Positions 1-38,312 of a stretch of 64,000 nt of DNA are shown here, one piece after another. Position 1 is the stretch's first letter, and each line of letters opens with the position of its first letter. The position numbers and the translations under genes were made by a program. The stretch covers positions 24,056,001 through 24,120,000 of the forward strand of contig OX597821.1 in NCBI GenBank assembly GCA_951406725.2, in the 5' to 3' direction. The notes below the pieces were generated by a model that was given only the letters and a program-made list of their open reading frames with translations, was not told the DNA's origin and made no database searches. The stretch is from Octopus vulgaris. Taxonomy: Eukaryota.

Positions 1-614
1 CTGTACATAGCCATCTATCATTTCTTCTGTTTACATTCTGATTTTCATCAAAGTTTTTTCTCGTAGAGAAGAACCAAATGACATCTTTCTCTTCTGGGTT
101 TTTAAGTTTGTTCTGGAGTCTTCTAGATCTGATTAAGCGATATTTCTACACTTTTCTGACATGAAATTACCTTTCCTTATCACATAAGATTTATATTTGA
201 TGTCTTTGTGGACAACATTCCGGATTGTTCTTTTTGACACATGGTGTTCTTTAGCAATCAGCCTCATGGATCTTCTGGGGTTGTCATGAAGGGTCTGCTT
301 TACTCGTTGAATAAATTCTGGTGTTCTAATAGTCTCAGTGCGTCCACAATGTTTGACACTGGCGATACATTTCCGTTTTTAGCCTCTAACTCTTTGCAAA
401 TTTTGTAGACGAAGGACCAGGCGGCTTCTAAAAATCGTGCTGTTTCTAAATTGCTATGTTCAGCCTTTAGAGCCACGATGACAACGTGCTTCTTAATTTC
501 TTGTGTAATCATAGGGTCTGCCATTGATAATTCTGAAATATAGAAAATATTAAGTTGATAAATATGCTGCTATAGTAAAATTAATATATGTTCTCAAATA
601 CCTTACGCACCCTG
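1..614 (-). mobile_element. Tc1/mariner-superfamily (maT/DD37D-like) transposon, 5' part, degenerate; runs off the window
   Basis: Minus strand starts TA-CAGGGTG (terminus at 614). ORF 300-524 is an HTH-type N-terminus. Frameshifted continuation reads ...DNPRRSMRLIAKEHHVSKRTIRNVVHKDIKYKSY... and EKNFDENQNVNRRNDRWLC (first catalytic-Asp region of this group). Confidence 0.7.

Positions 615-1661: not shown

Positions 1662-1704
<43 letters not shown>
1553..1704. repeat. (TACA)n and (TA)n microsatellites
   Basis: Direct reading; a 21-nt near-copy of the adjacent element end (aatgaccg..gaaatacaa) sits between the two arrays. Confidence 0.9.
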
Positions 1705-1712
<8 letters not shown>

Positions 1713-2152
1713 AAAGTAAATAAATGGTACAACGAAGCACCGATATCTACTGGAAAATAGCGAACGTAATAAATACGACGCTAATGTATAGCTTCACTGT
1801 GTATGTACTAGTAAAGATGCGTGTGTGCAACAAACATGAAAAATTGTCTTACCTCTAGGAAAAACATCTGAAAAATGAAAAACCTAGATAATGGATAATG
1901 TAGTACCGGTTTCGGATTTTTCAAGATACGCTTGCCAAACGTATACTTGATTTATCCTCATCAGCTGCATAAACCCCGACAATATTTCAAAAGTTACTAG
2001 AGGTAAGACAATTTTTTTCATGTTTGTTGCACACACGCATCTTTACTAGTACATACGCAGTGAAGCTATACATTAGCGTCGTATTTATTACGTTCGCTAT
2101 TTTCCAGTAGATATCGGTGCTTCGTTGTACCATTTATTTACTTTTATGTATA
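1705..2152. repeat. ~155-bp near-perfect inverted repeats (1705-1858 / 1997-2152) enclosing a hammerhead; probable Penelope-like pLTR inversion
   Basis: The arms differ by one substitution and a 2-nt homopolymer length difference, by eye. Confidence 0.9.
1898..1970 (-). ncRNA. Type I hammerhead ribozyme (intact core)
   Basis: Minus strand: atgcag-CTGATGA-ggat..tcaag..atacg(loop)cgtat-cttga..atcc-GAAAC-CG-GTA-ctacat. Palindromic stem III ACCGGT; GUA cleavage triplet. Confidence 0.85.
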
Positions 2153-2211
2153 ATTTTACCCTCACGGGCTATCCTTTACTGGAAAGCAATACTCTAGTAT
2201 TGCATTACTAT

Positions 2212-2216
<5 letters not shown>

Positions 2217-2265
<49 letters not shown>

Positions 2266-17292: not shown

Positions 17293-18339
17293 AGGATCTT
17301 TTCTTTTTGATGGACGGAATTTTCTAGTTAACTAAAAAATTTGAAACTTCGTATACTGGTAGAATGTGTCAAAAGAAAACATTATTGTAAACAAAATTGA
17401 AAACAAAATTGTAATTCGTAACTTTAACGTAGTTTTATTCTTCGAATTTTAACCAATGAAATCGCAGCATCTTCGAATTTTAACCAATGAAATCCGAGCA
17501 TTTGAGCTCAAATCATTTGCTGCGTAATCGATTTTGATAAACAATCATAGCAGACGCACGTCACACACACACACACACACAAACTCTCTCTGTCTGTCTG
17601 TTTGTCTCTCTCTCTCTCTCTCTCAAACACATGCATATACATTTGCACAAGCACATAGTAATTTATATATAAGCGTACACACACATACAAACGGAGATAT
17701 ACATACACACACATACGCACACAAGACTACATACACGTTTGTGTTTTGCCCCTTGCCGCAACAAATTTGCACAAAAGGTAAATAAACCAGAAGGAGTGGG
17801 GGTCAATGTTTCATCGTTTCGGGGTCAATAAATTAAGTACCAATTACGCACTGGTGTCGAGGATTTTTTCCCAAATTTATATCACAGCTTCCGATAAGCT
17901 GGGGCATTCTTTTATGAAAAAATATTTCGCAAATTTTTACTTCTGGCCCTTGAAAACCATGGGAGAACACTTTTCTGTAAAAAAAAAATAAAGAAAATAT
18001 TCAAAAAATATCGTTAATATTTTTATTGGGCGACGAAATTCATCGATTTAAGAGATATAGCTGTTATTTCTAGCACATGTAGAATACAGAAGACAGAAGA
18101 GAGAAAGGATGAATAAGACGTGTGTGTGTGAGTTTTTAGACGCAGCAAATGGTTTGAGCTCGAATGCTAGGATTTCATTGGTTAAAATTCGAAGAATAAA
18201 ACAACGTTAAAGTTACGAATTACAATTTTGTTTTCAATTTTGTTTACAATAATGTTTTCTTTTGACACATTCTACCAGTATACGAAGTTTCAAATTGTTT
18301 AGTTAACTAGAAAATTCCGTCCATCAAAAAGAAAAGATC

Positions 18340-18341
<2 letters not shown>
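17293..18341. mobile_element. Non-autonomous DNA transposon with ~200-bp TIRs (GGATC.. / ..GATCCC)
   Basis: 17293-17525 is close to the reverse complement of 18140-18341; the left arm has a ~31-bp internal tandem duplication. Superfamily not determined. Confidence 0.85.
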
Positions 18342-18375
<34 letters not shown>

Positions 18376-18390
18376 AAGATCCCATATATA

Positions 18391-21300
18391 GAGAGTTGGC
18401 TTGCCGAAATGGCACATTGCTTCCCTTTCTTTATCCTTACCGAGACTCACCTGAACAACACCCATATGGACGCAGAGGTGAAAATAAAAGATTACACCAT
18501 TGTTCGTGCGGATCGCACAGACCGAAATAAGGGAGGGACAGCCATCTTTATCCATGACTCCTTTTCACTTGATGCCAAGGACATATTTTCCAATGGCTAC
18601 TGTGAATCGGTATCACTATACAACAAAGCCAAGGACATAACCATTGTTGGTCTTTACAGGCCTCCCCAGGCACCTCTAAAGTACTTTGAAGAGTGCCTTA
18701 GCAAAGTCAAGTCCTTCCTTCGGAAGTACCACTCCGGAAACATACTAGTGATGGGTGATTTTAACCTCCCTCATGTGAACTGGCCCACAAATACTCTGAA
18801 GTTAGGCAAGTGCTCTACATCAGAGAGAGCAGCAGCAGAACTGCTCTTTAATCTGATGGATGAGTATTTCCTGACTCAGCTAGTGCTTGAACCAACGAGA
18901 CAGAATAAAACGATCTTGGATCTGGTATTGACCAATCACTCTAGCTACGTTCACAGTATTTCAGTCGAAAAAACTCTCCTCTCAGACCACGACATGGTAC
19001 TCTGCAATCTTAATTCCCGACATATAAAAACCAAACCAGCCAATCCCATTCCATGGCACCCATTTGACAACATAAACTTCCACAAAGCGGACTGGGGAAC
19101 AATCAGAAAGGATCTGTCTTCCATCGACTGGTCTTTTACTCTCAATTCCTCTCATATTGAGACCGCGTGGCAGCACTTTGAAAACATTGTCACCTATACA
19201 TGCTCTAAACACGCTCCCAAGAAATCTACTAACACAAACAGAAACCGGCTCCCTAAAAAGAAAAAAAACACTCATCAGGCGCATCAAAAGACTCAACAAA
19301 AAATCAACCAATTAAAATATTCCCACACACAACATCCACATTCAACAACAATGAAAAGACTAGAGCTGGAAAAACTTCATCTGCAGACCAACATGAAAAC
19401 CTCCATTGAAAATCAAAGAGCTGTGGAGGAACAATGGGTAATCAAAAACATCAAACAGAACCCAAAAGTGTTCTATTCTTATGCAAATAAGCATAGAACC
19501 ACTGTCTCACCCATTGGGCCATTGATTGATGATAACGGCATTCTCCAACACGATGCTAAAGAAATGGCAGAAATACTGCAGAAACAATACTGCTCTGTCT
19601 TTAGTGTCCCCACTGATATCGACGTAAGGGAAACGAACGAAGTTGACTCCCAACACAAAATCTCAGACATAACCTTCACTGCCACCGACATCGTAGCAGC
19701 AATAAATGAGGTCAAACATTACTCTGCTGAAGGCCCTGATAGATTTCCCGCTAGTTTCCTGAAGGAATGTAGATACCAACTTGCAGTCCCTCTGACCAAC
19801 CTCTGGAGAAATTCGTTAGACGCAGGTTATATACCGAAACAGTTTCTATCCCAGTCGGTCATCCCGGTTTTCAAACAGGGAAACAGATCCCTCGCAGTCA
19901 ACTATCGCCCAATCTCACTCACCTCCCACATCATTAAAGTGTTTGAAAGAGTGTTAAGATCAAGGATAGCTGACTTCCTGGAGACCCACAAACTCCTAAA
20001 TGCAAATCAGCATGGCTTTCGCTGTGGCAGGAACTGTCTAACACAGCTCTTGCACCACATTGAAGATGTACTCAAAGCCTTGGGAACAGGTTCGAACTCT
20101 GACGTCATATATCTTGACTTCAGTAAAGCGTTCGACAGGGTAGACCATAACATCCTACTCTCAAAATTGGCAAATGTTGGAATCCGTGGAAAAGTTCTAC
20201 ACTGGATTAAGTATTTCCTGGCGAATAGAACACAACATGTTGTAGTTGATGGAGTCCACTCAAACCCAGCAAAAGTCACCAGCGGTGTTCCCCAGGGAAC
20301 TGTTTTGGGTCCGCTACTCTTCATAATTTACGTAAACGACCTTTCCAGTGTCGTACATTACTGCAAAGTGAAAATATTTGCTGATGACACTAAGCTCCAG
20401 CAAATTGTCAATGAAGAAGCAGACCGAACTCAACTCCAGTCTGATCTATATGCTGTGAGTCAATGGGCAGACAGAAACAAAATGCAACTGAATGAGGGAA
20501 AATTTGAGCTGATGCATTTTGGAAGAAATTCCTCACTAAAACAACCATACTCTCTTCCTTCAGGGGAACCGCTCACAGCCTCTAACAATATCAGAGACTT
20601 GGGTGTAATTGTTGATGACGATCTCAGTTGGAGTGCACACATCAACAAGAAGGTCGATATAGCTCGTAGGATGAGTTCCTGGATCTTAAGAACTTTCCGG
20701 TCCAGAGAACAAGGTGTCATCATACCACTTTTTTCCTCCTTTGTACGGCCACACCTTGAATACTGCTGCCCATTGTGGTCTCCTCACGCAAGACAAAACA
20801 TCTCCAGAATTGAGTCACCCCAGAGGGCACTCACTAAACAAATTGAAGGCATGGCTGCTCTCGATTATTGGGATCGCCTTAAAGCCTTGAAACTTTACTC
20901 CCTCCAGCGTCGCCGTGAGCGGTACATCATTTGTACGATGTGGAAAATATACCGCCAACTTTGCCCAAACGACCTAAACATTAGCTTCAAGGTTCATCCA
21001 AGACTTGGACCACGGGCTATACGTCCCCTGCCCAATTCAAGATCACAACATACATGTACACTGCAACATAATTTCTTTTCCTCAACAGGCCCTGCCCTAT
21101 TTAACATTGTCCCGAGGGAGATCAAAGAGAAAAAGGATCCCATCAACTTTAAACAGAGTCTGGATAGATTCCTTCAAAGAATACCAGATAAGCCACCCAT
21201 AATTGGATACAACTCACCCAACAAGAACTCACTACTTGAACAAAACTGGATACAACTCACCCAACAAGAACTCACTACTTGAACAAAACTTGACTTAAAC

Positions 21301-22373: not shown

Positions 22374-23648
22374 ACGAAACGGACGGAATCGCCCGTCGTC
22401 GCTCGCCCGAACGGCCTACAAGTTCGCCACGGAACCCAAAGAGGAGAGAGGAGAGGAGAGATACAACAACAACCACAACCGCAACAGAGATACAGAGGCA
22501 CAACCCGAGATACAACCCAAAGAGGCAAGGCAACAACTGGCAACACTGGCTTATATTCAAACAACAGTTTATACGACAATCAATTGCTACACATCAAATA
22601 CATTTAAGGCAAACAACAAATCAATACATTATACGGTATACCACAGATCAAAGCATTTAACAACATGCATGTAACAATATAACAGTGTTCAGTAACGACA
22701 CAACAAGTCCAGATCAAATAATGTTCACGATACGTCACAGTCCAATCAGAACACTTCGATACATTATACAATGTTCGTATCACAACAATTCACGTTACAA
22801 TTCAACAAGTCCTTTACTCAATTCACAATGTTCTTTATCGACTACATCGACAGAGTCCTTCTTTTTCTCTCTTCTTTCTCTTCTTTTACAGTCTCTTTAC
22901 CTCGTGACACATATCAATGCACAACACATACCTTAATTCCTAACTGAATCGCCAGTGTCCCATTCTGCACTCATCTCTTAATACTGCTAAATCCTCTGAA
23001 TACTCTGCTAATTCCCCTCTGTGCATATTCCAATCGCTTGCTCCTAGGCCTCCTCGCATCCCAGCTCGCTCCCAGGAATTCCAACGCTTGCTCCCTAAAT
23101 CCAAGGTTCCATCCACTCGCTCTGACCTCCAGAGTCCGTCTCTCTTCTTCGACGACCAGCCACGAACTCCAAGATCCGTCTGTGTTCTTCGACGACCGCT
23201 CAACGACTCCCCAGACCTCACTTCGTCTCTGTCCTTCTTCCACTCCCTCATCTCCCTCTGTACCGCTCACACCCTCTCTAACTGCCCTGGTCCTTATACT
23301 CTATCTATATCCTCAATCTGTCCCTTACTGCTTATCCTTTCTATTTGCCCTCTGATTCCTTACTCTATCTATATCGCCTGCTGTCTCTTAGCCTCTCCAT
23401 CCGTCCCTTTAGCCTTATACTCTATCTCTATTTGCTCTCAGCCCTTAATCTGTCTTCCTCTTTACTTCTTCAAGGGGTGCTCAGAATGACCTCCAATCGA
23501 CCGCACAAGGTCAGAAAGGTCTCATTAATCTCCCACTAGACAAAGGACCCGTCACTTTTCACCAGACATACTGGAACCATTATTCCTATGTGGGTCACCA
23601 GAAACACTACACTAATTAAACCCGAAATGCACTTAGCCAACCGTAACA
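22370..23648 (-). repeat. 3' LTR
   Basis: About six differences from 25637-26916, by eye. Confidence 0.95.
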
Positions 23649-23660
23649 CTACCCCTACCT
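23649..23660 (-). promoter_or_regulatory. Polypurine tract
   Basis: AGGTAGGGGTAG immediately before the 3' LTR. Confidence 0.8.
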
Positions 23661-25578
23661 AAGCTTTTGTCGACCCGACAAAGCATAACAAAACTCGCAC
23701 CTCCGAGCAGCAGACTCTCCAGGGGCTGGGGGTCCCCTTGGGTGGTTTCTCCTCCGGGGGTCTCACCTCCCACGGCCACCACTTCAGCACCAGCCACAGG
23801 TTGGCACCTTCCCTCTGCGGCTTGGGTAACACCTCCGCCAACGCCGCCAGGCTTCCTACTAGCCGCCCACAATAGGCGCACCGTCCGAGGAAGTTCCTCA
23901 AATCCCTCACACAAGAAGGGTCCGGCCAATCCTTCACAGTGGCCACCTTCCTCAGGGCTCTATAGCCCACGTAGCATCTTGCTGTACCATCTCCATTCCG
24001 CGCAATCATCGCCGACGACCAGGGACCATTCCGCTTTTCCACTGTTCCCCGTCGCCGATATCTCCTCTTGCGCTGCTGTACTGAGACCTTCCTCCGGCCT
24101 CGCTGCTTCCTCAAGCGACAACCGCCCTGGTCGACGAAACGTTCTGCCAGGTCCGTGCGACCAGCATCCAACAACCCTCGCGACCAACGTCCTGCGCTCT
24201 TCACCAACGGTTGCTTCTTCCGCAACTGCATCAGCGGACCACGATCTCTGACTGCATCACTGTATTGGCAGAACTGGCCCTGCCGCTGGTCCACCGTCCG
24301 GCGCAGTTCCACGATTTGCCCTCTGCAAATCGCCTGCGCAGCCTTCAATAACTCGGCCGACCCAACCAGCGCTCTGTCAGCCTCTGCCTCCACCAGGGTC
24401 CAGCCGACCCTCAATTGAGCTCCTATTCCGCACTGCATGTCGGGCTCCACCGGCCCCACGCAACCATCAAATACAGAGCTCCCCCAAGTGCCAACAAAGC
24501 ACCAGCGACTCCTTGCGGACCGCCTCCTCAACTGCATCCGTGGGCCACCAACTCCTTCAACTGCGTTGCCGTATCGGCAGAACTGGCCCCACCACTGGTT
24601 CGCCATCTGGCACGATTCCTCGATTTGCCTTCTGCAAATCGCCTGTGCCACTTCCAAAAGATCGGCCGACCCAGCCAGCGCTCCACCAGCTTCTGCTTCC
24701 ACTAGGGTCCACCCGACCCTCAATCGAGCTTTCACTAGGCACTGCCTGTCGGGCTCCACCGGCCCCAAGCAACCATCAACCACAAAGCTCACCCAACGCT
24801 GAAGCAGTCTTCCTGGTCTCGGTGGACCCACCACCGTTCGCAGCCGTCTCGCCTCGTCAACGGGCCTGGTCCTTTTCCTCACCAGCTTCCGTACCGCAGG
24901 CCTCACAACACACACGCTCGGCCGCCAGTCCATCCACGCCTGTGGACTCTCCACAGTGGGAACCATACTGTCCCTCTGGGCCCCAAGAGACAGGAGTCCA
25001 GACACCAAAGGACTCGCACACGGCACAACACCTGCCGCGACCATCACACACAGAGCCGGAACCTCGGATTCAGCGACATCCGCCCCAGACCTCGCCAGCT
25101 CTTCGTCCTGAGCTCCGAGAGACAGGGGTCGAGATGCCAAGGGCTCCAGACACGGAACAACAGCATCAGCCATAACACCTTCCACAGGCCTTTTGGTTAC
25201 TTCAACCTCTACGGGTTCCAAATCACAAGATTTCTTGGGTACAGCGTCACAAATTTCGGCAACCAGCCCAGGTTCCGCAAACACAACCGGTCCAGCATCA
25301 CAGATTTCGGCAACACTTCCTTCACTATCTGTTTCCCTCGATGCTTCGTTCGACGGGCAATCTCTGCCCACAGGACCGTCGCTAACCTCGGTCCAACACC
25401 GATCCTTCAAAGCTGACCCATCCGCAACCTCAAGCTCCCGCTGATCTGCCCACAGGCCCCGTCGCCTCTTGTCCATTCTTTCCACGAACGCGTCCGTCTG
25501 CGCCATCTGGCCCCTTAACATCTCCACAATCAGAGCAAGCGAAATCTCGTCTCCGGTCTGACAACCAGACAAATCCAT
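23659..25578 (-). CDS. Chimeric gag-like / RT-remnant protein (639 aa from ATG 25578), no catalytic domains
   Basis: Coiled-coil-like N-terminus and duplicated blocks. GPWSSAMIARNGDGTARCYVGYRALRKV (RT N-terminal) is fused directly to ATVKDWPDPSCVRDLRNFLGRCAY (post-RT). Confidence 0.7.
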   Translation of the reverse strand: MDLSGCQTGDEISLALIVEMLRGQMAQTDAFVERMDKRRRGLWADQRELEVADGSALKDRCWTEVSDGPVGRDCPSNEASRETDSEGSVAEICDAGPVVFAEPGLVAEICDAVPKKSCDLEPVEVEVTKRPVEGVMADAVVPCLEPLASRPLSLGAQDEELARSGADVAESEVPALCVMVAAGVVPCASPLVSGLLSLGAQRDSMVPTVESPQAWMDWRPSVCVVRPAVRKLVRKRTRPVDEARRLRTVVGPPRPGRLLQRWVSFVVDGCLGPVEPDRQCLVKARLRVGWTLVEAEAGGALAGSADLLEVAQAICRRQIEESCQMANQWWGQFCRYGNAVEGVGGPRMQLRRRSARSRWCFVGTWGSSVFDGCVGPVEPDMQCGIGAQLRVGWTLVEAEADRALVGSAELLKAAQAICRGQIVELRRTVDQRQGQFCQYSDAVRDRGPLMQLRKKQPLVKSAGRWSRGLLDAGRTDLAERFVDQGGCRLRKQRGRRKVSVQQRKRRYRRRGTVEKRNGPWSSAMIARNGDGTARCYVGYRALRKVATVKDWPDPSCVRDLRNFLGRCAYCGRLVGSLAALAEVLPKPQREGANLWLVLKWWPWEVRPPEEKPPKGTPSPWRVCCSEVRVLLCFVGSTKA

Positions 25579-25616
25579 AGCGAAAAAGAACCGATCGAAA
25601 CGCAGCAATCAGGACA

Positions 25617-25634
25617 ATCCCACTTCTGACACCA
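25617..25634 (-). promoter_or_regulatory. Primer binding site, tRNA-Leu type
   Basis: TGGTGTCAGAAGTGGGAT, 2 nt after the 5' LTR; complementary to a tRNA-Leu 3' end. Confidence 0.85.
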
Positions 25635-25636
25635 GT

Positions 25637-26916
25637 TGTTACGAAACGGACGGAAATCGCCCGTCGTCGCTCGCCCGAACGGCCTACAAGTTCGCCACGG
25701 AAACCAAAGAGGAGAGAGGAGAGGAGAGATACAACAACAACCACAACCGCAACAGAGATACAGAGGCACAACCCGAGATACAACCCAAAGAGGCAAGGCA
25801 ACAACTGGCAACACTGGCTTATATTCAAACAACAGTTTATACGACAATCAATTGCTACACATCAAATACATTTAAGGCAAACAACAAATCAATACATTAT
25901 ACGGTATACCACAGATCAAAGCATTTAACAACATGCATGTAACAATATAACAGTGTTCAGTAACGACACAACAAGTTCAGATCAAATAATGTTCACGATA
26001 CGTCACAGTCCAATCAGAACACTTCGATACATTATACAATGTTCGTATCACAACAATTCACGTTACAATTCAACAAGTCCTTTACTCAATTCACAATGTT
26101 CTTTATCGACTACATCGACAGAGTCCTTCTTTTTCTCTCTTCTTTCTCTTTTTTTACAGTCTCTTTACCTCGTGACACATATCAATGCACAACACATACC
26201 TTAATTCCTAACTGAATCGCCAGTGTCCCATTCTGCACTCATCTCTTAATACTGCTAAATCCTCTGAATACTCTGCTAATTCCCCTCTGTGCATATTCCA
26301 ATCGCTTGCTCCTAGGCCTCCTCGCATCCCAGCTCGCTCCCAGGAATTCCAACGCTTGCTCCCTAAATCCAAGGTTCCATCCACTCGCTCTGACCTCCAG
26401 AGTCCGTCTCTCTTCTTCGACGACCAGCCACGAACTCCAAGATCCGTCTGTGTTCTTCGACGACCGCTCAACGACTCCCCAGACCTCACTTCGTCTCTGT
26501 CCTTCTTCCACTCCCTCATCTCCCTCTGTACCGCTCACACCCTCTCTAACTGCCCTGGTCCTTATACTCTATCTATATCCTCAATCTGTCCCTTACTGCT
26601 TATCCTTTCTATTTGCCCTCTGATTCCTTACTCTATCTATATCGCCTGCTGTCTCTTAGCCTCTCCATCCGTCCCTTTAGCCTTATACTCTATCTCTATT
26701 TGCTCTCAGCCCTTAATCTATCTTCCTCTTTACTTCTACAAGGGGTGCTCAGAATGACCTCCAATCGACCGCACAAGGTCAGAAAGGTCTCATTAATCTC
26801 CCACTAGACAAAGGACCCGTCACTTTTCACCAGACATACTGGAACCATTATTCCTATGTGGGTCACCAGAAACACTACACTAATTAAACCCGAAATGCAC
26901 TTAGCCAACCGTAACA
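25637..26916 (-). repeat. 5' LTR
   Basis: Direct repeat of 22370-23648. Confidence 0.95.
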
Positions 26917-27240: not shown

Positions 27241-28505
27241 TATCAGATCATCCCATAAGTTCTGTCCGAATTTTGAATAAAGAAGACAAGTAATCAAATG
27301 TTATATTTAATTTTAATTTAATCATCAATGTACTTTCCCCGATTATCTATGACTTCCTTCCATCTATTTACAAGCTTTTTAATCCCATCACTTTTGGTTT
27401 CAAAGTAAAGAACTCTGAAATGTTAGTTTCGACCTCCTCCTGGCTTGCGAAAGTTATGTCCCCCAAGTGATTCTGTAAGCTGGGGAACAAATGGTAGTCT
27501 GAAGGAGCAAGGTTGGGAGAATAAGGTGGATGAGGAAATTTTCCCAACCAAGCTCTTCGATCTTGTGATGTGATCTTTGTGGGATCGCGCATTGTCCTGA
27601 TGAAACATCACTCCTTTTCAATTCACTGAAGCAGGTCATTTTTCTTCAAAGCTTGGTTCAAACGCTGTAATTGCTGACAGTTGACTTGAGCATTGATTGT
27701 TGCATTAGGTGGTAACAATTCAAAGTGAATTACTCCTTTGCAATCCCACCAGATAGAGAAAAGAACTTTTTTCCCATGAAGTTCCCTTCTCTGTTGTGGT
27801 TGAGCCTTTTCCCTTTTACCAAGCCACTGTTTATGACGTTTGACATTTCGATAGAAGATTAATTTTTCGTCACTAGTTACTAGTCTATCCAAAAAGAGTG
27901 AAATGAGTTCGCGAGAATGGAGAGAAGAGCAGATGTCAACTCGGGATTTGCTGTTGCTTTTGGACAATTCATGAGGCACCCATTTTCCAAGTTTAGGAAC
28001 CTTTCCAAGTTGTTGAAGATGATGAACAGTTGTATGGTTTGAACTAAGCTTTATTGCCAATTCTTCAACCGATAATGCAGGATTTTCTTCAAGTAATGCC
28101 TCAAGGAGCTTATCATCAAACTCGACTGGACGTCCTGTTCGATCTTCATCTTCAAGGCTGAAATCTCCACTTCTGAATTTTGCAAACCATCTTCTGCAAG
28201 TTCTTTCATTCAAGCATTCTTTCCCATAAACTGAGTGTATGTTTCGAGTCGCTTCGGCTGCAGAGTTTCCTTTTTTGTACTCATAAAGTATTATGTGCCT
28301 CAAATGCTTTTTGTATACTTCTATGTTAGAAATGGTTTTAATTAAAGAAATTTTAATTCTATTAGTCTGTAAAATGATATTTAATTAGTTTAAGTGTACA
28401 GAAATGCATAAAAATAATTTTTAATTCCATTAGACATTCTAAAATACTATTAAATTTCATTCAATTCTAAAAAAGGTAAAATCGGACAGCATATGTGTGA
28501 TGTTT
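27241..28505 (-). mobile_element. Mariner (DD34D) element with disrupted transposase (~27330-28325)
   Basis: HTH, WVPHEL, VTSDEK, FHQDNARSH, HPPYSPNLAPSDYHLF. Start codon appears mutated to ATA; frameshifts; TIR core tgtccga.tttt / aaaatcggaca. Confidence 0.92.
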
Positions 28506-31104: not shown

Positions 31105-33654
31105 TGTGGGATGACGTCAGCAGCTAGGGAGCTGACCGGAACTTGGGGCTGACTGAAAGGCCACGCCAGGGTTGAGTTTGAAGACGAGGTGGAGAGGTGG
31201 ATCGAGGAAGGGGTCCTTGTCCCTTGGGAGGATGAGGTAGCGGTCGGAGTGCTACCCCTGATGGCGGTGGTGCAGCCTACGAAGGGAAAAGTCAGACCGG
31301 TGCTGGACTTCAGGGAGCTAAACCAGCATATATCGTGTCACACGGGAGGTGAGGCGACAGACGTTTGTGGCGAGACGTTACGTGCGTGGAGACAGTCGAC
31401 CAAGGCAGCGACGATTGTCGACTTGAAATCGGCATACTTGCAGCTCCATGTGAGCGACAAACTGTGACAATATCAGCTGGTGCGGTACAAAGGCCGGACG
31501 TACTGTTTAACCAGGCTGGGTTTCGGACTGAATTCCGCCCCGAAGATCATGGCGGCAGTGCTTAAGTCCGTCCTAGGGAAAGACGGCAAGATTAGAAAGG
31601 CCACCAGCTCCTACATTGACGACATTTTGGTGGACGAAACTGTAGTGCAAGCCAACGAGGTAGTTAGACATCTGGAAAAGTTCGGACTGATTGCTAAGCC
31701 ACCGGAGTCGATTGAAGGGGGAGCCGGGCTGGGGCTGAAGCTGCGAAGAGATAGATCGGGTGAATTGGTGTTCCGGAGAGGGAATGAAATCCCAGAGCTG
31801 AGTTCCAGCGTCAGCAGGAGAGAGCTGTTCTCGGTGTGTGGGAAGTTGGTCGGTCACTACCCGATCGCTGGATGGCTGCGCATGGCGTGAAGTTACACCA
31901 AGAGACGAGCGGAGGGGGAGAGTTGGGGCGACAAGGTGGCGATGATGCAGGAAATCCTAGAGAGGACGAGAGCGGAAGACCCGGTCAGGGGGAACTTGTA
32001 CGTGCCCAAGACGGAATGCGGGACCGTCTGGTGTATAGCGATAGGGGTTGTGTTGGCAATCGAAGGCGCTGCGGTGGAGGACGCGGCCTGGCTTCGGAAA
32101 GCAGATGACTTCAACCACATCAATGTCGCCGAATTAGACGCGGTGCTGAAAGGGGCGAACTTGGCCCTGAAATGGGGGCTGCGCACGATTGAAATCCGGA
32201 CGGATTCGGCCACTGTGCTTGGCTGGGTAGGATAGGTGATCACCGGTGAAAGGAGAGTGCGGACGAAAGGTGCCGCGGAGATGTTAGTGAAGCGCCGTCT
32301 AGGAGTTCTAGGTGAATTGATCGCCGAGTTCGGACTGAAGCTGAACGTGGTTTACGTGCCTTCGGAGAAAAACAGGGCGGACGCACTGATCAGGGTGAAA
32401 AGAGCGTGGTTGGAAGAACCGGAGGAGGCCCGGAAAGGGATAGCTGCAGCGTGTCGGTTGGATGACTCTGAACTGAAGAGACTGCATGCTATGCATCACC
32501 TGGGTGTGGACAGGACCCTGTATCTGGCGTAGAAAATTGATGCTGACGTCACTAGGAGAAGCATCCGGAAAGTGGTCGGGAGCTGTGACAGGTGTCAGTC
32601 CATCGACCCTGCTCCGTGTGGGCATGAACAGGGAAGCCTTTCGGTGGAGCACAACTGGAAAAGGCTAGCTGTGGATGTGACGCACTACCGTCAGGGAATG
32701 TACTTCTCCATGGTCGACTGCGAGCCAGGCCGGCTGGCCATTTGGAGGGAGTTGAGGTCCTGTGGAAGAACTGCTGATGGACAACGGGGCGGTGTTTCGT
32801 TCGGAAGCATTGAGGGTTATGCTTGATCGGTTGAAGGTGCGTCGCTTGTTCAGAGCAGCGTATAGGCTGAGCGGTAACGGGATCGTAGAGAGGCACCATC
32901 GGACAGTCAAGGCCATAGCGGAAAGAGGGCACATTTCGCCGTTTGAAGCAGTTTTTTGGTACAACTTGTCTCCCCGATCCGGACAAGCTGAGGAATCTGT
33001 GCCGCAGAGAGCTGTATTTAAATATGAATGGAGGCACCCGAGCAAAGCGCCGGAGGGCCACGAGGAAGAGAAGGGACCCGTTTGCGTGAAAATAGGGGAG
33101 GAAGTCTGGGTTAAGCCACCAAAGGCGCGCTGTAGGTCTCAATGGAGCAGAGGAACGGTGACGGCGGTCAATTCCAGAAACAACGTCTCCGTGGACGGAA
33201 TGCCGCGACACGTCTTGGACCTCCGCAGGATTGTCGCTTCGACGGACGACGATTGTGGAGAGGAGGAGAACGAGGTGCCCAGCTTCAGAAGATCTCGACG
33301 CGCAAGGCGCCCTCCCGGTTGGATGGTGGACTACGACATGGAGTAGAGAGATTGTGATCTTTAAGATCAGGGTGGCGTGTGGGATGACGTCAGCAGCTGG
33401 GGAGCTGACCGCAACTTGGGGCTGACCGGAAGGGGCAGCCGTGACGCGCGCGCAGCGAGCGGGGCATTCTGCCTTTTCGAGTTAGGTCGTCGAGGGGTTA
33501 AGACGGGTGATCACGTTGTTAAGGTTGGGTGAAGTAGCTACTATCTCTAGCGTTCGGGTCGGGCTGTGTCGAAGAATCCATTACCGTTGAAGGGTCTCCA
33601 TCAGAGCAAAGAGAAGGTAGGTGCTTTTATTTAGAATCTCTCGCACACACCACA
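31105..33654 (+). mobile_element. Gypsy LTR retrotransposon with a large 5' deletion
   Basis: GAAAC 5-bp TSD; 5' LTR stub 31105-~31160; full 3' LTR 33378-33654; purine-rich tract before it. Confidence 0.93.
31165..33346 (+). pseudogene. Gypsy pol remnant (RT - RNase H - integrase) with several stops and a frameshift
   Basis: VRPVLDFRELN, DLKSAYLQ, RLGFGLNSAP, YIDD; HINVAELDA, TDSA, NRADAL; HH..C..C; DNG, GNGIVERHHRTVK. Confidence 0.92.
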
Positions 33655-35591: not shown

Positions 35592-35629
35592 GCCCATATA
35601 TATATACTTAGTTGTGATCTGAACATAAC

Positions 35630-38312
35630 CGCTTCTCACACACAGACGAAATAGTTAAAGCAAACATGGTACATGGTCCATGTGGGCGTGGATTCAACAT
35701 AAACACACCATGCTTGAAGGACAGCATATGTTCAAAAAGATTTCTAAGAAGGTTCCTACAAGAAACTCAGACAGGTGCTGATGGGTATCCATCATACAGA
35801 CGCAAAAAAACAGAAGACGGAGGTTTCACAGCAACTATCGGACAGCACGATATTGATAATAGATCGATTGTTCCATACTACCCACTCCTGTCAAAGACTT
35901 TCAATGCCCACATAAACATTGAGTTTTGCAACTCCGTTAAATCCATCAAGTACGTTTGCAAATATGTAAACAAGGGTTCTGACGCTGCATTGTTTGGACT
36001 TCAACCAGAATACTGCCAGGATGAGGTGACGCTTTCCAATTCACCAACGACACCCCGCCATTCAACAGCTTGCAGTGCACCTGGAAAATGGTCAAAGAGT
36101 GTACTTCACCGATGCTAATGCTTCTCTGTTGGCAGAGGAACCAAGGGATAGCACACTCAATGCATTCTTCAAGCTTTGTCAAGTGGATCCATTCGCTCAA
36201 ACCTTGCTGTATCTACATCCACAGATTCCATCGTACTACACTTGGAATGAAAAAAAATGGGCCCCACGGAAAGCAGGTCAAAATGTTCATGGATACCCTG
36301 GCATTAAGTTTCACACTTGCCTTGGGCGAGTATACACAGTGCATCCCACTCAACAAGAGTGCTTCTACATTCGTCTACTACTGCATGAGGCCAGAGGGCC
36401 AACGTCTTTCCAGGCCCTAAAAACCGATCATGGACATGTCTGCACAACATACAGAGAAGCCTGCTATCGACAAGGTCTGTTAGAAGATGGTGCACAATGG
36501 GATGCAACTTTAGGAGAGGCTGCTTTATCACAATCACCTAAAAGTCTCAGGGCACTATTTGCAGTATTACTACAGGCATGCGAACTGTGTGATCCGGCCA
36601 CTCTATGGCTCAAATATAGAGACAACCTGGCTGAAGACTTTCAGCGCCAAGCTCAACTGCTCTATCCTGACATGGAGGGAATCAGCAATGAAATCTATAA
36701 CAAAACACTCATTGACATTGAAGACAGAATTGCTAAACTGGGTGGAAATGAATTGTCGACGTATGGCCCGCCACAAGCATTCAGGTCAGGGTCAAATAGC
36801 CTTCCCACTGCTGTCATTCGTGAAACAACCTACGACACTCAATCGCTTTCAAATACATTGTTGAAAATGAGCCTAAATTACTTCCGGACCAACTGCAGGC
36901 CTACAGAACAATTCTTAACAGTGTACACCAACGCGAGGGACAAATCTTCTTCCTCGATGCTCCTGGAGGGACAGGAAAAACATTTATTACAAAGCTTCTC
37001 CTTGCAGAAGTTAGGTAGCATCAGGACATTGCAGTAGCTGTAGCCTCCTCTGGCATTGCAGCTACTTTGTTACCCAGTGGCAGGACAGCACACTCAACTT
37101 TTAAACTCCCTCTCAATTTAGCAGCATCCGAAATGCCTTCATGCAACATCAACAAAAGCTCAGATCAGGGACAAGTACTTAAAATGTGTCATCTAATTGT
37201 CTGGGATGAGTGCACTATGGCTCACAAGGAAGCTTTGGAAGCATTAGATAGAGCCCTGAAAGACATCTGAGACTGTCAGGCTCCAATGGGAGGTGTAACG
37301 CTTTTGTTGTCAGGTGATTTCAGGCAAACTCTTGTCATTCCGAAAGGCACTAGAGCAGATGAAGTCCAAGCATGCCTAAAGTCCTCTACCCTGTTGAATC
37401 ATGTTACAATCCTCAGTCTCACCACTAACATGAGGGCTCAGCTACACGGCGACAAAATGTCCACAAAGTTTGCACAGGACATTTTGAAGGCAAGTGAAGG
37501 CAAGATGCCTCTCGATGCTGCAGGACAAATGGAAGTGTGGTCATTTTCCTCTGTTGTTAATTCTGTAGATGACCTCAAAATCAAAGTCTTTCCCAACTTC
37601 ACGCAAAACTACCAAAATCACAATTGGCAGTGTGAAAGAGCTCCAAAAAACGTCGCTGTTAACAAAATTAATCAACAGCTAATGCATTCTCTTCCCGGCA
37701 CTATACACACTTACAAGTCTGTTGATACAATTCCAGATATAAATGAAGTTGTGAACTATCCTCCTGAATTTCTCAATTCACTGGAGCCTCCTGGACTACC
37801 TCCACACATATTAGCACTTAAAGTTGGAACTCCTGTAATGCTACTCCGCAATCTGGAACCACCAAGAGTTTGCAATGGAACACGACTGGTGATAAAGAAA
37901 ATGATGTCACATGTTATCGAGGCGATCATTCTTTCTCGACGTGGAAAAGGTGATGACGTCTTTATTCCAAGAATTCCTCTTACTCCATCAGGAACAGAAA
38001 TTCCATTTACATTCAAAAGACTGCAATTCCCGCTTCGTGTCAGCTTTGCCATGTCCATTAACAAATCTCAGGGTCAAACCCTCTCTGTAGCTGGTCTTCT
38101 GTTGGAACAGGCCTGCTTCTCGCATAGGCAACTGTATGTTGGCTGCTCAAGAGTAGGAACCAAAAGAAACCTTTTTGTATATACTCCACAAGGAAAAACA
38201 AGGAACATTGTTTACAACGAGGTGTTATAATCTCAACAGCCAGGAGGTATATACATGATCCCCTTTTTTTAACAAACTTCATGTACTTTCATGTATTTAT
38301 ATTAATATACAA

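Follow-up and report, generated by a model that had tools for sequence, protein, structure and literature searches.

A 64,000-nt stretch of Octopus vulgaris DNA, referred to here as the window, carries near its start a hammerhead ribozyme in the loop of a long inverted repeat. The arrangement raises the question whether it represents an RNA hairpin that opens its own loop, as the initial annotation had proposed from the sequence letters, or the trace of a particular mode of insertion. In the reading that we consider likely, a non-coding hammerhead retroelement with a 429-nt unit inserted here in truncated, head-to-head form, through two-strand priming at a (TA)n tract by a Penelope-type reverse transcriptase-endonuclease.

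Architecture of the locus and its repeat family

The near-perfect inverted repeat of ~155 bp that had been described at first was confirmed. Its arms (Table 1) enclose a 138-nt spacer and differ by one substitution (1800/2057) and a 2-nt indel within an A/T run. The element exceeds the interval annotated originally, since the tail reaches 2217 and both outer ends adjoin (TA)n. It is composed of two family copies set head to head, which are named here after their 3' ends A and B. The A arm is a 5'-truncated copy of 290 nt corresponding to monomer positions m138-m429, and behind position 1995 other family copies part from the window sequence. The stretch m138-271 is found only in the A arm and the tail only in the B arm.

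Table 1. Features of the head-to-head insertion, in window coordinates.
Feature	Position	Strand	Basis or remark
Left (TA)n target microsatellite	1666..1705	.	
Left arm of inverted repeat	1705..1858	.	arm pairing
Arm ending at 3' end A, carries hammerhead	1706..1995	-	97% BLAST to natural monomer from L009
AG/GTAAG donor-like site	1848..1854 (-), also 2001-2007 (+)	-/+	family sequence
Type I hammerhead	1898..1970	-	motif, family fold, covariation
Head-to-head junction	1995..1997	.	either a single additional base (1996) or a TT microhomology plus one substitution
Right arm of inverted repeat	1997..2152	.	arm pairing
Arm ending at 3' end B	1997..2217	+	monomer m272/275-m429 plus tail; BLAST to monomer
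66-nt tail between ends A and B	2152..2217	+	on B side only
Right (TA)n target microsatellite	2218..2262	.	

Judged by its sequence, the locus belongs, as one insertion, to a dispersed family of 429-nt head-to-tail monomers with a type I hammerhead and no ORF, and the family is best classed as a non-LTR retrozyme or non-autonomous Penelope-like element. The monomer (36% GC, stops in all six frames) was defined from copies with upstream sequence, which close head-to-tail; L009:1495-1923 serves as the natural reference. Exact matches across the genome, an assembly of 2.8 Gb in 227 contigs, numbered 49 for a 30-nt tag and 83 for a 29-nt tag, and another tag of 29-30 nt was located in 60 places. 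A second, younger subfamily consists of 427-nt monomers with 88% identity. Arms longer than one unit occurred 38 times, the longest (848 nt, L178) holding about two units; two-unit insertions are rare and long arrays were not seen. Li et al. regard a retrozyme as "active" if it contains two consecutive complete ribozyme units, and the window contains one ribozyme. In two DNA runs the summed contig depth of the arm was about ten to twenty times that of the spacer, a hint that many further copies exist in diverged or short form.

Folded as a circle, the natural monomer was predicted to be more stable than its shuffled versions (z -4.7, 60 shuffles). Between the arms at the same locus, ~270 nt of non-family DNA (L009:1958-2228), partly flank-like and itself inverted, may stem from a template switch to host DNA. 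Within L267:2444-8576, a 1146-aa LINE-like ORF is enclosed by a family insertion and its inverted duplicate. The window itself contains a further 177-nt inverted repeat (17294-17470 / 18164-18340, 98%, 693 nt between the arms) beside a (TA)n tract. Other mobile elements, recognised from translations and repeats only, lie at 18307-21282 (-), 22589-26105, 27623-28384 (-), 31468-33346, 35618-38230 and 1-530 (-); they comprise a 991-aa endonuclease-RT LINE ORF, an LTR-like pair, mariner-like remnants, gypsy-like pieces and a Helitron-like helicase.

An ORF for a reverse transcriptase with a GIY-YIG endonuclease was present neither in the monomer nor attached to any family copy screened. Comparison of the monomer with 62 GIY-YIG loci, drawn from 6136 first-look candidates, revealed no significant DNA similarity and thus no autonomous parent; a 60-point local alignment to L126 was judged to be due to chance. 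Several (TA)n-ended families encoding RT plus GIY-YIG exist in the genome. Among them is an abundant young element (L121:1745-4090 and relatives) with a 781-aa RT, a C-terminal GIY-YIG domain and a CxxxxCxxC linker, which by the description in PMC8557442 would be Neptune/Nematis-like. It ends in (TA)n and has an optional tail of its own of ~40 nt; a regular-expression search of its 3' repeat found no CTGANGA box.

The hammerhead ribozyme and the donor-like site

The hammerhead core reported for the minus strand is indeed present: CUGAUGA (1964-1958) is followed by a long, interrupted stem II (1957-1914), GAAA (1913-1910), CCGG and UA. Stem I would be formed by 1970-1965 with 1903-1898, a palindromic stem III/loop lies at 1910-1905 and cleavage is predicted at 1904/1903. 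Rfam returned only a weak hammerhead match at the locus (HH9, 16.2 bits against a cut-off of 52, E 0.38) and no hammerhead match in a scan of the whole 64-kb window, and it is therefore on the motif, together with the fold and covariation in the family, that the assignment is based. In an alignment of 45 variants, 93.3% of the cells were paired and 7 of 25 pairs had changed on both sides, compared with 4.1 +/- 1.1 in a shuffle control that reached this number in 11 of 500 runs and that related sequences can beat. Two-sided changes in stems I and II were found in the second subfamily, and the first pair of stem II is mismatched in 12 of the 45 variants. On this comparison the hammerhead fold of the family is supported, with modest covariation. 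The minor-allele fraction, taken without a significance test, was 0.011 in the core, 0.032 elsewhere and 0.029 in stem I.

The window copy itself cannot be called intact, as had been claimed for it: the third pair of stem I is a C-A mismatch (1901), and a second copy-specific change, at 1976, is predicted to favour a rival hairpin which swallows CUGAUGA. Across the family, stem I pairs at 6 of 6 positions in 89 of 101 complete copies and the core is intact in 97. Predicted stem I pairing was 0.0 in the context of the locus versus 0.7-1.0 in family-type copies, and the energy of the hammerhead fold exceeds the minimum by 7.4 kcal/mol in the window copy and by 2.6 in family-type copies. The window copy is likely a dead-on-arrival relic with a ribozyme predicted to misfold.

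Stem III is a palindrome of 1-2 bp that would pair with itself between two molecules at a predicted -10.3 kcal/mol. Hammerheads of this type are reported to cleave poorly or not at all as monomers and to need a dimer (PMC4209133, PMC7229834). The predicted cut site is spanned by 58 of 60 tagged copies, so the templates would mostly have been uncleaved, multimeric or religated. Two independent arms (L002:1735-1747 and L052:1645) break 2 nt past the cut, the only breakpoints of the 60 copies within a 45-nt interval; they give a weak hint of occasional cleavage, which microhomology renders ambiguous.

Further type I hammerhead families, numerous and for the most part with a palindromic stem III, occur in the flanks of the loci examined, and the motif is common in this genome. 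Examples were seen at L099:455(+) and 3057(-), L256, L053, L205, L234, L181, L186, L222, L266, L281, L289, L010, L058, L013, L021 and L060; L099 and L256 carry one hammerhead on each strand. Pairs of hammerheads on opposite strands, 100-700 bp apart, were already noted in 2014 (PMC4209133).

An AG/GTAAG donor-like site at the start of the arm had been considered notable in view of introns retained by Penelope-like elements. The site exists, 6 nt inside each arm (1853/1852 on the minus, 2002/2003 on the plus strand), and no support was obtained for a special role of it. Arm breakpoints fell within 10 nt of it in 5 of 112 cases, where ~5.5 would be expected from a uniform distribution. A breakpoint hotspot was accordingly dismissed; the site belongs to the sequence common to the family, in which putative donor-like and acceptor-like splicing motifs both occur. 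In the window an acceptor-like pyrimidine tract with AG (1853-1875, minus strand) precedes the donor-like site by 15 nt. Speculatively, the pair could frame an ATG-initiated micro-exon of 15 nt, and in a dimer the intron would then amount to nearly one monomer and hold the ribozyme.

Paired ends and the origin of the inverted repeat

The inverted arrangement recurs widely. The survey covered 132 distinct insertions, at loci that form a search-ranked sample and not a census, and 65 of them are head-to-head. The family has two fixed 3' ends 66 nt apart, B being A plus the tail, whose length varies from 62 to 67 nt. End A falls at m429 in 98 of 114 cases and end B at m66-67 in 55 of 66. TA-rich DNA adjoins 163 of 185 scored 3' ends, compared with 25 of 65 5' ends.

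These ends are combined in a nearly strict manner. The 65 inverted insertions comprise 54 with one A and one B end (AB), one AA, no BB and ten with one uncallable end, so that 54 of the 55 with two callable ends are AB (p 1.6e-15 against 0.5). The sole AA case runs 18 nt into the tail, and four of the eight "Ax" insertions among the ten uncallable ones terminate at the B terminus. Single insertions, by comparison, ended 50 times in A, 10 times in B and 7 times otherwise, and independent ends should hence have produced mostly AA. A subset found with an internal tag (73 insertions, 32 inverted) held 27 AB and 5 uncallable cases, and the second subfamily (28 insertions, one already counted) 12 AB, both without AA or BB. 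A second-arm stub was detected in 2 of 60 non-inverted insertions.

What is directly seen comprises a repeat family with a defined monomer and two fixed ends, flanks of (TA)n, the pairing of these ends, short overlaps at junctions and variants common to both arms; from this we infer the following priming steps. In a (TA)n tract, a Penelope-type reverse transcriptase-endonuclease would cut one nick into each strand, and the element RNA would offer two fixed sites, each the start of one cDNA. One nicked strand would prime at A, here copying 290 nt through the ribozyme, and the other at B, 66 nt downstream, copying 221 nt and reading through A. Joining of the two cDNA 3' ends, in most cases across a few microhomologous bases, would turn the doubly copied stretch into the 154-bp inverted repeat. 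The position of the hammerhead in the loop would have no other cause than the longer extension of the cDNA primed at A compared with that primed at B. In the source element the ribozyme would likely act as a dimer or with the help of proteins, on multimeric or circular RNA.

Among 39 clean junctions out of 56 two-arm junctions (17 with insertions or long overlaps were left out), 30 overlap by at least 2 nt, where chance would give 16.5%; BLAST overlaps may inflate this microhomology. Partner arms share 67 of 123 non-majority bases versus an expectation of 12.6 (in 30 insertions whose arms have 40 or more columns in common), including 29 variants below 10% frequency, although later gene conversion could also yield such sharing. 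The arms in the window share only one common variant. In the 46 simple AB insertions the A arm lies inside the B arm in 23, two are perfect hairpins, neither arm contains the other in 14, including the window, and the arms do not overlap in 7.

The best-surviving alternative, which we nevertheless hold to be rather unlikely, is fold-back self-priming of a single cDNA combined with endonucleolytic trimming of the tail from one side. Self-priming by fold-back was proposed for an antisense template (PMC3846280), and trimming by a nuclease is the explanation of the tail given in PMC8557442. Such a process would likewise leave one tailed and one tail-less end as well as shared variants, short complementary overlaps are present at junctions, and it accommodates at most 25 of the 46 simple AB insertions without extra steps (the 23 with A inside B and the two perfect hairpins). 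The other 21, including the window, cannot be built by simple fold-back, since neither arm contains the other; they would require a second round of RNA copying or later deletions. The tail, moreover, is accounted for by two RT start sites observed in vitro (PMC11167929). The 21 cases beyond simple fold-back make priming on both target strands likely.

The role envisaged at first, in which a functional RNA hairpin would cut its loop open and supply Dicer or ADAR, appears very improbable. Any read-through transcript of the locus would contain a 154-bp duplex, and the predicted fold of the minus-strand hairpin reaches -291.6 kcal/mol with the core nucleotides of the ribozyme in place. Contigs from two runs, guessed to be of RNA, contain family sequence, and rotifer Penelope copies are a source of small RNAs (PMC3846280). 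None of the listed pieces crosses the junction, however, which leaves these contigs uninformative on expression. Matches to miRNA models stayed far below their cut-offs. Opening of the loop is not supported by a single ribozyme with a dimer-dependent stem III and a stem I predicted to be unformed in this copy, and the architecture is a common by-product with arms of variable length. The locus is probably inert.

Equally improbable is that one (TA)n tract received two separate insertions, or that the region was locally inverted afterwards. Tracts of (TA)n are insertion hot spots, but the many AA cases to be expected from the single insertions are missing, which largely refutes this reading; the arms share rare variants and there is no TA tract between them. 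A MITE or foldback DNA transposon was rejected as well, in view of arm lengths ranging from 22 to 673 nt and ends that differ by the tail. An assembly or library fold-back artefact is hardly credible: sequencing can create long inverted repeats and no read spans the whole locus in the data examined, but a substitution and an indel distinguish the arms, the asymmetric tail obeys the family-wide rule, the same architecture stands at 65 insertions of which none shares both flanks with another, and a short-read contig, possibly derived from the assembled sample, is identical to 1947-2023 across the junction (with 27 letters on one side, below a 31-letter rule).

Two-strand priming is not free of counterevidence: no parent was found among the 62 GIY-YIG loci, the tail is longer than described elsewhere, 67 of the 132 insertions are not inverted, and of only three inverted insertions seen in the 781-aa family two were AB and one BB, next to 26 loci without a second end within 1.5 kb. 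The strictness of the pairing leads to a further proposal, to which we assign even chances of being correct. Twin priming may be coupled, in that one complex, perhaps the predicted dimer, assigns the RNA start sites to opposite strands and so provides exactly one tail per double-ended insertion, and animal retrozymes would integrate by the Penelope route. According to PMC11167929, Poseidon protein in purified form cuts nicks into both strands of AT-rich DNA and extends them, initiates at two internal RNA sites which bound the tail, is predicted to dimerise and inserts without need for ribozyme cleavage. The two start sites showed no strand preference in vitro, and strict pairing is therefore not predicted by that work as far as it was available.

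Relation to known elements and significance

The Penelope-type origin suggested initially is supported by the inverted 5'-truncated copies, the one-sided tail and the (TA)n targets. Penelope-like insertions share these traits with the octopus family as well as a hammerhead and donor-like site in the repeat and partial tandems (PMC8557442, PMC3846280). The octopus family differs in having no ORF, in a tail of 66 instead of 30-40 nt and in its near-strict pairing, whereas a one-sided tail is termed optional or frequent in these papers. The origin of tandem and inverted Penelope structures is named as an open question in PMC8557442.

Metazoan non-LTR retrozymes resemble the octopus family in their type I hammerhead, in low-GC, ORF-less head-to-tail monomers of 150-450 nt, in a short palindromic stem III like that of dimer-dependent amphibian forms and in many dispersed monomer copies (Cervera and de la Pena 2020, PMC7229834; Li et al. 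2026, bioRxiv 10.64898/2026.07.22.740005). Points of difference are the two fixed ends and head-to-head arrangement of half the octopus insertions, the word "inverted" being absent from the accessible portion of PMC7229834, and the lack of long arrays. The study in bioRxiv 10.64898/2026.07.22.740005 describes the mobility of retrozymes as unresolved and proposes that the non-LTR forms are non-autonomous Penelope derivatives.

Our observations also invite comparison with another retroelement. In the twin priming of L1, both target strands prime on the element RNA and the cDNAs join over microhomology, which results in an inversion; the second site varies, and an overlap of the segments is not known to occur. 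In the octopus family, by contrast, the sites are fixed and 39 of the 46 simple cases overlap, so that an inverted repeat is formed. For Penelope-like elements and retrozymes, no statement of a one-A-one-B rule or of twin priming was found in the literature searched, chiefly the main text of open-access papers.

The locus is an ordinary one, and it is the family-wide rule of end pairing that is of modest importance. The near-strict one-tail rule together with the 21 of 46 insertions beyond fold-back yields a prediction that bears directly on the in vitro system already established. For the octopus genome, the family seeds many long inverted repeats, which would give rise to dsRNA where they are transcribed.
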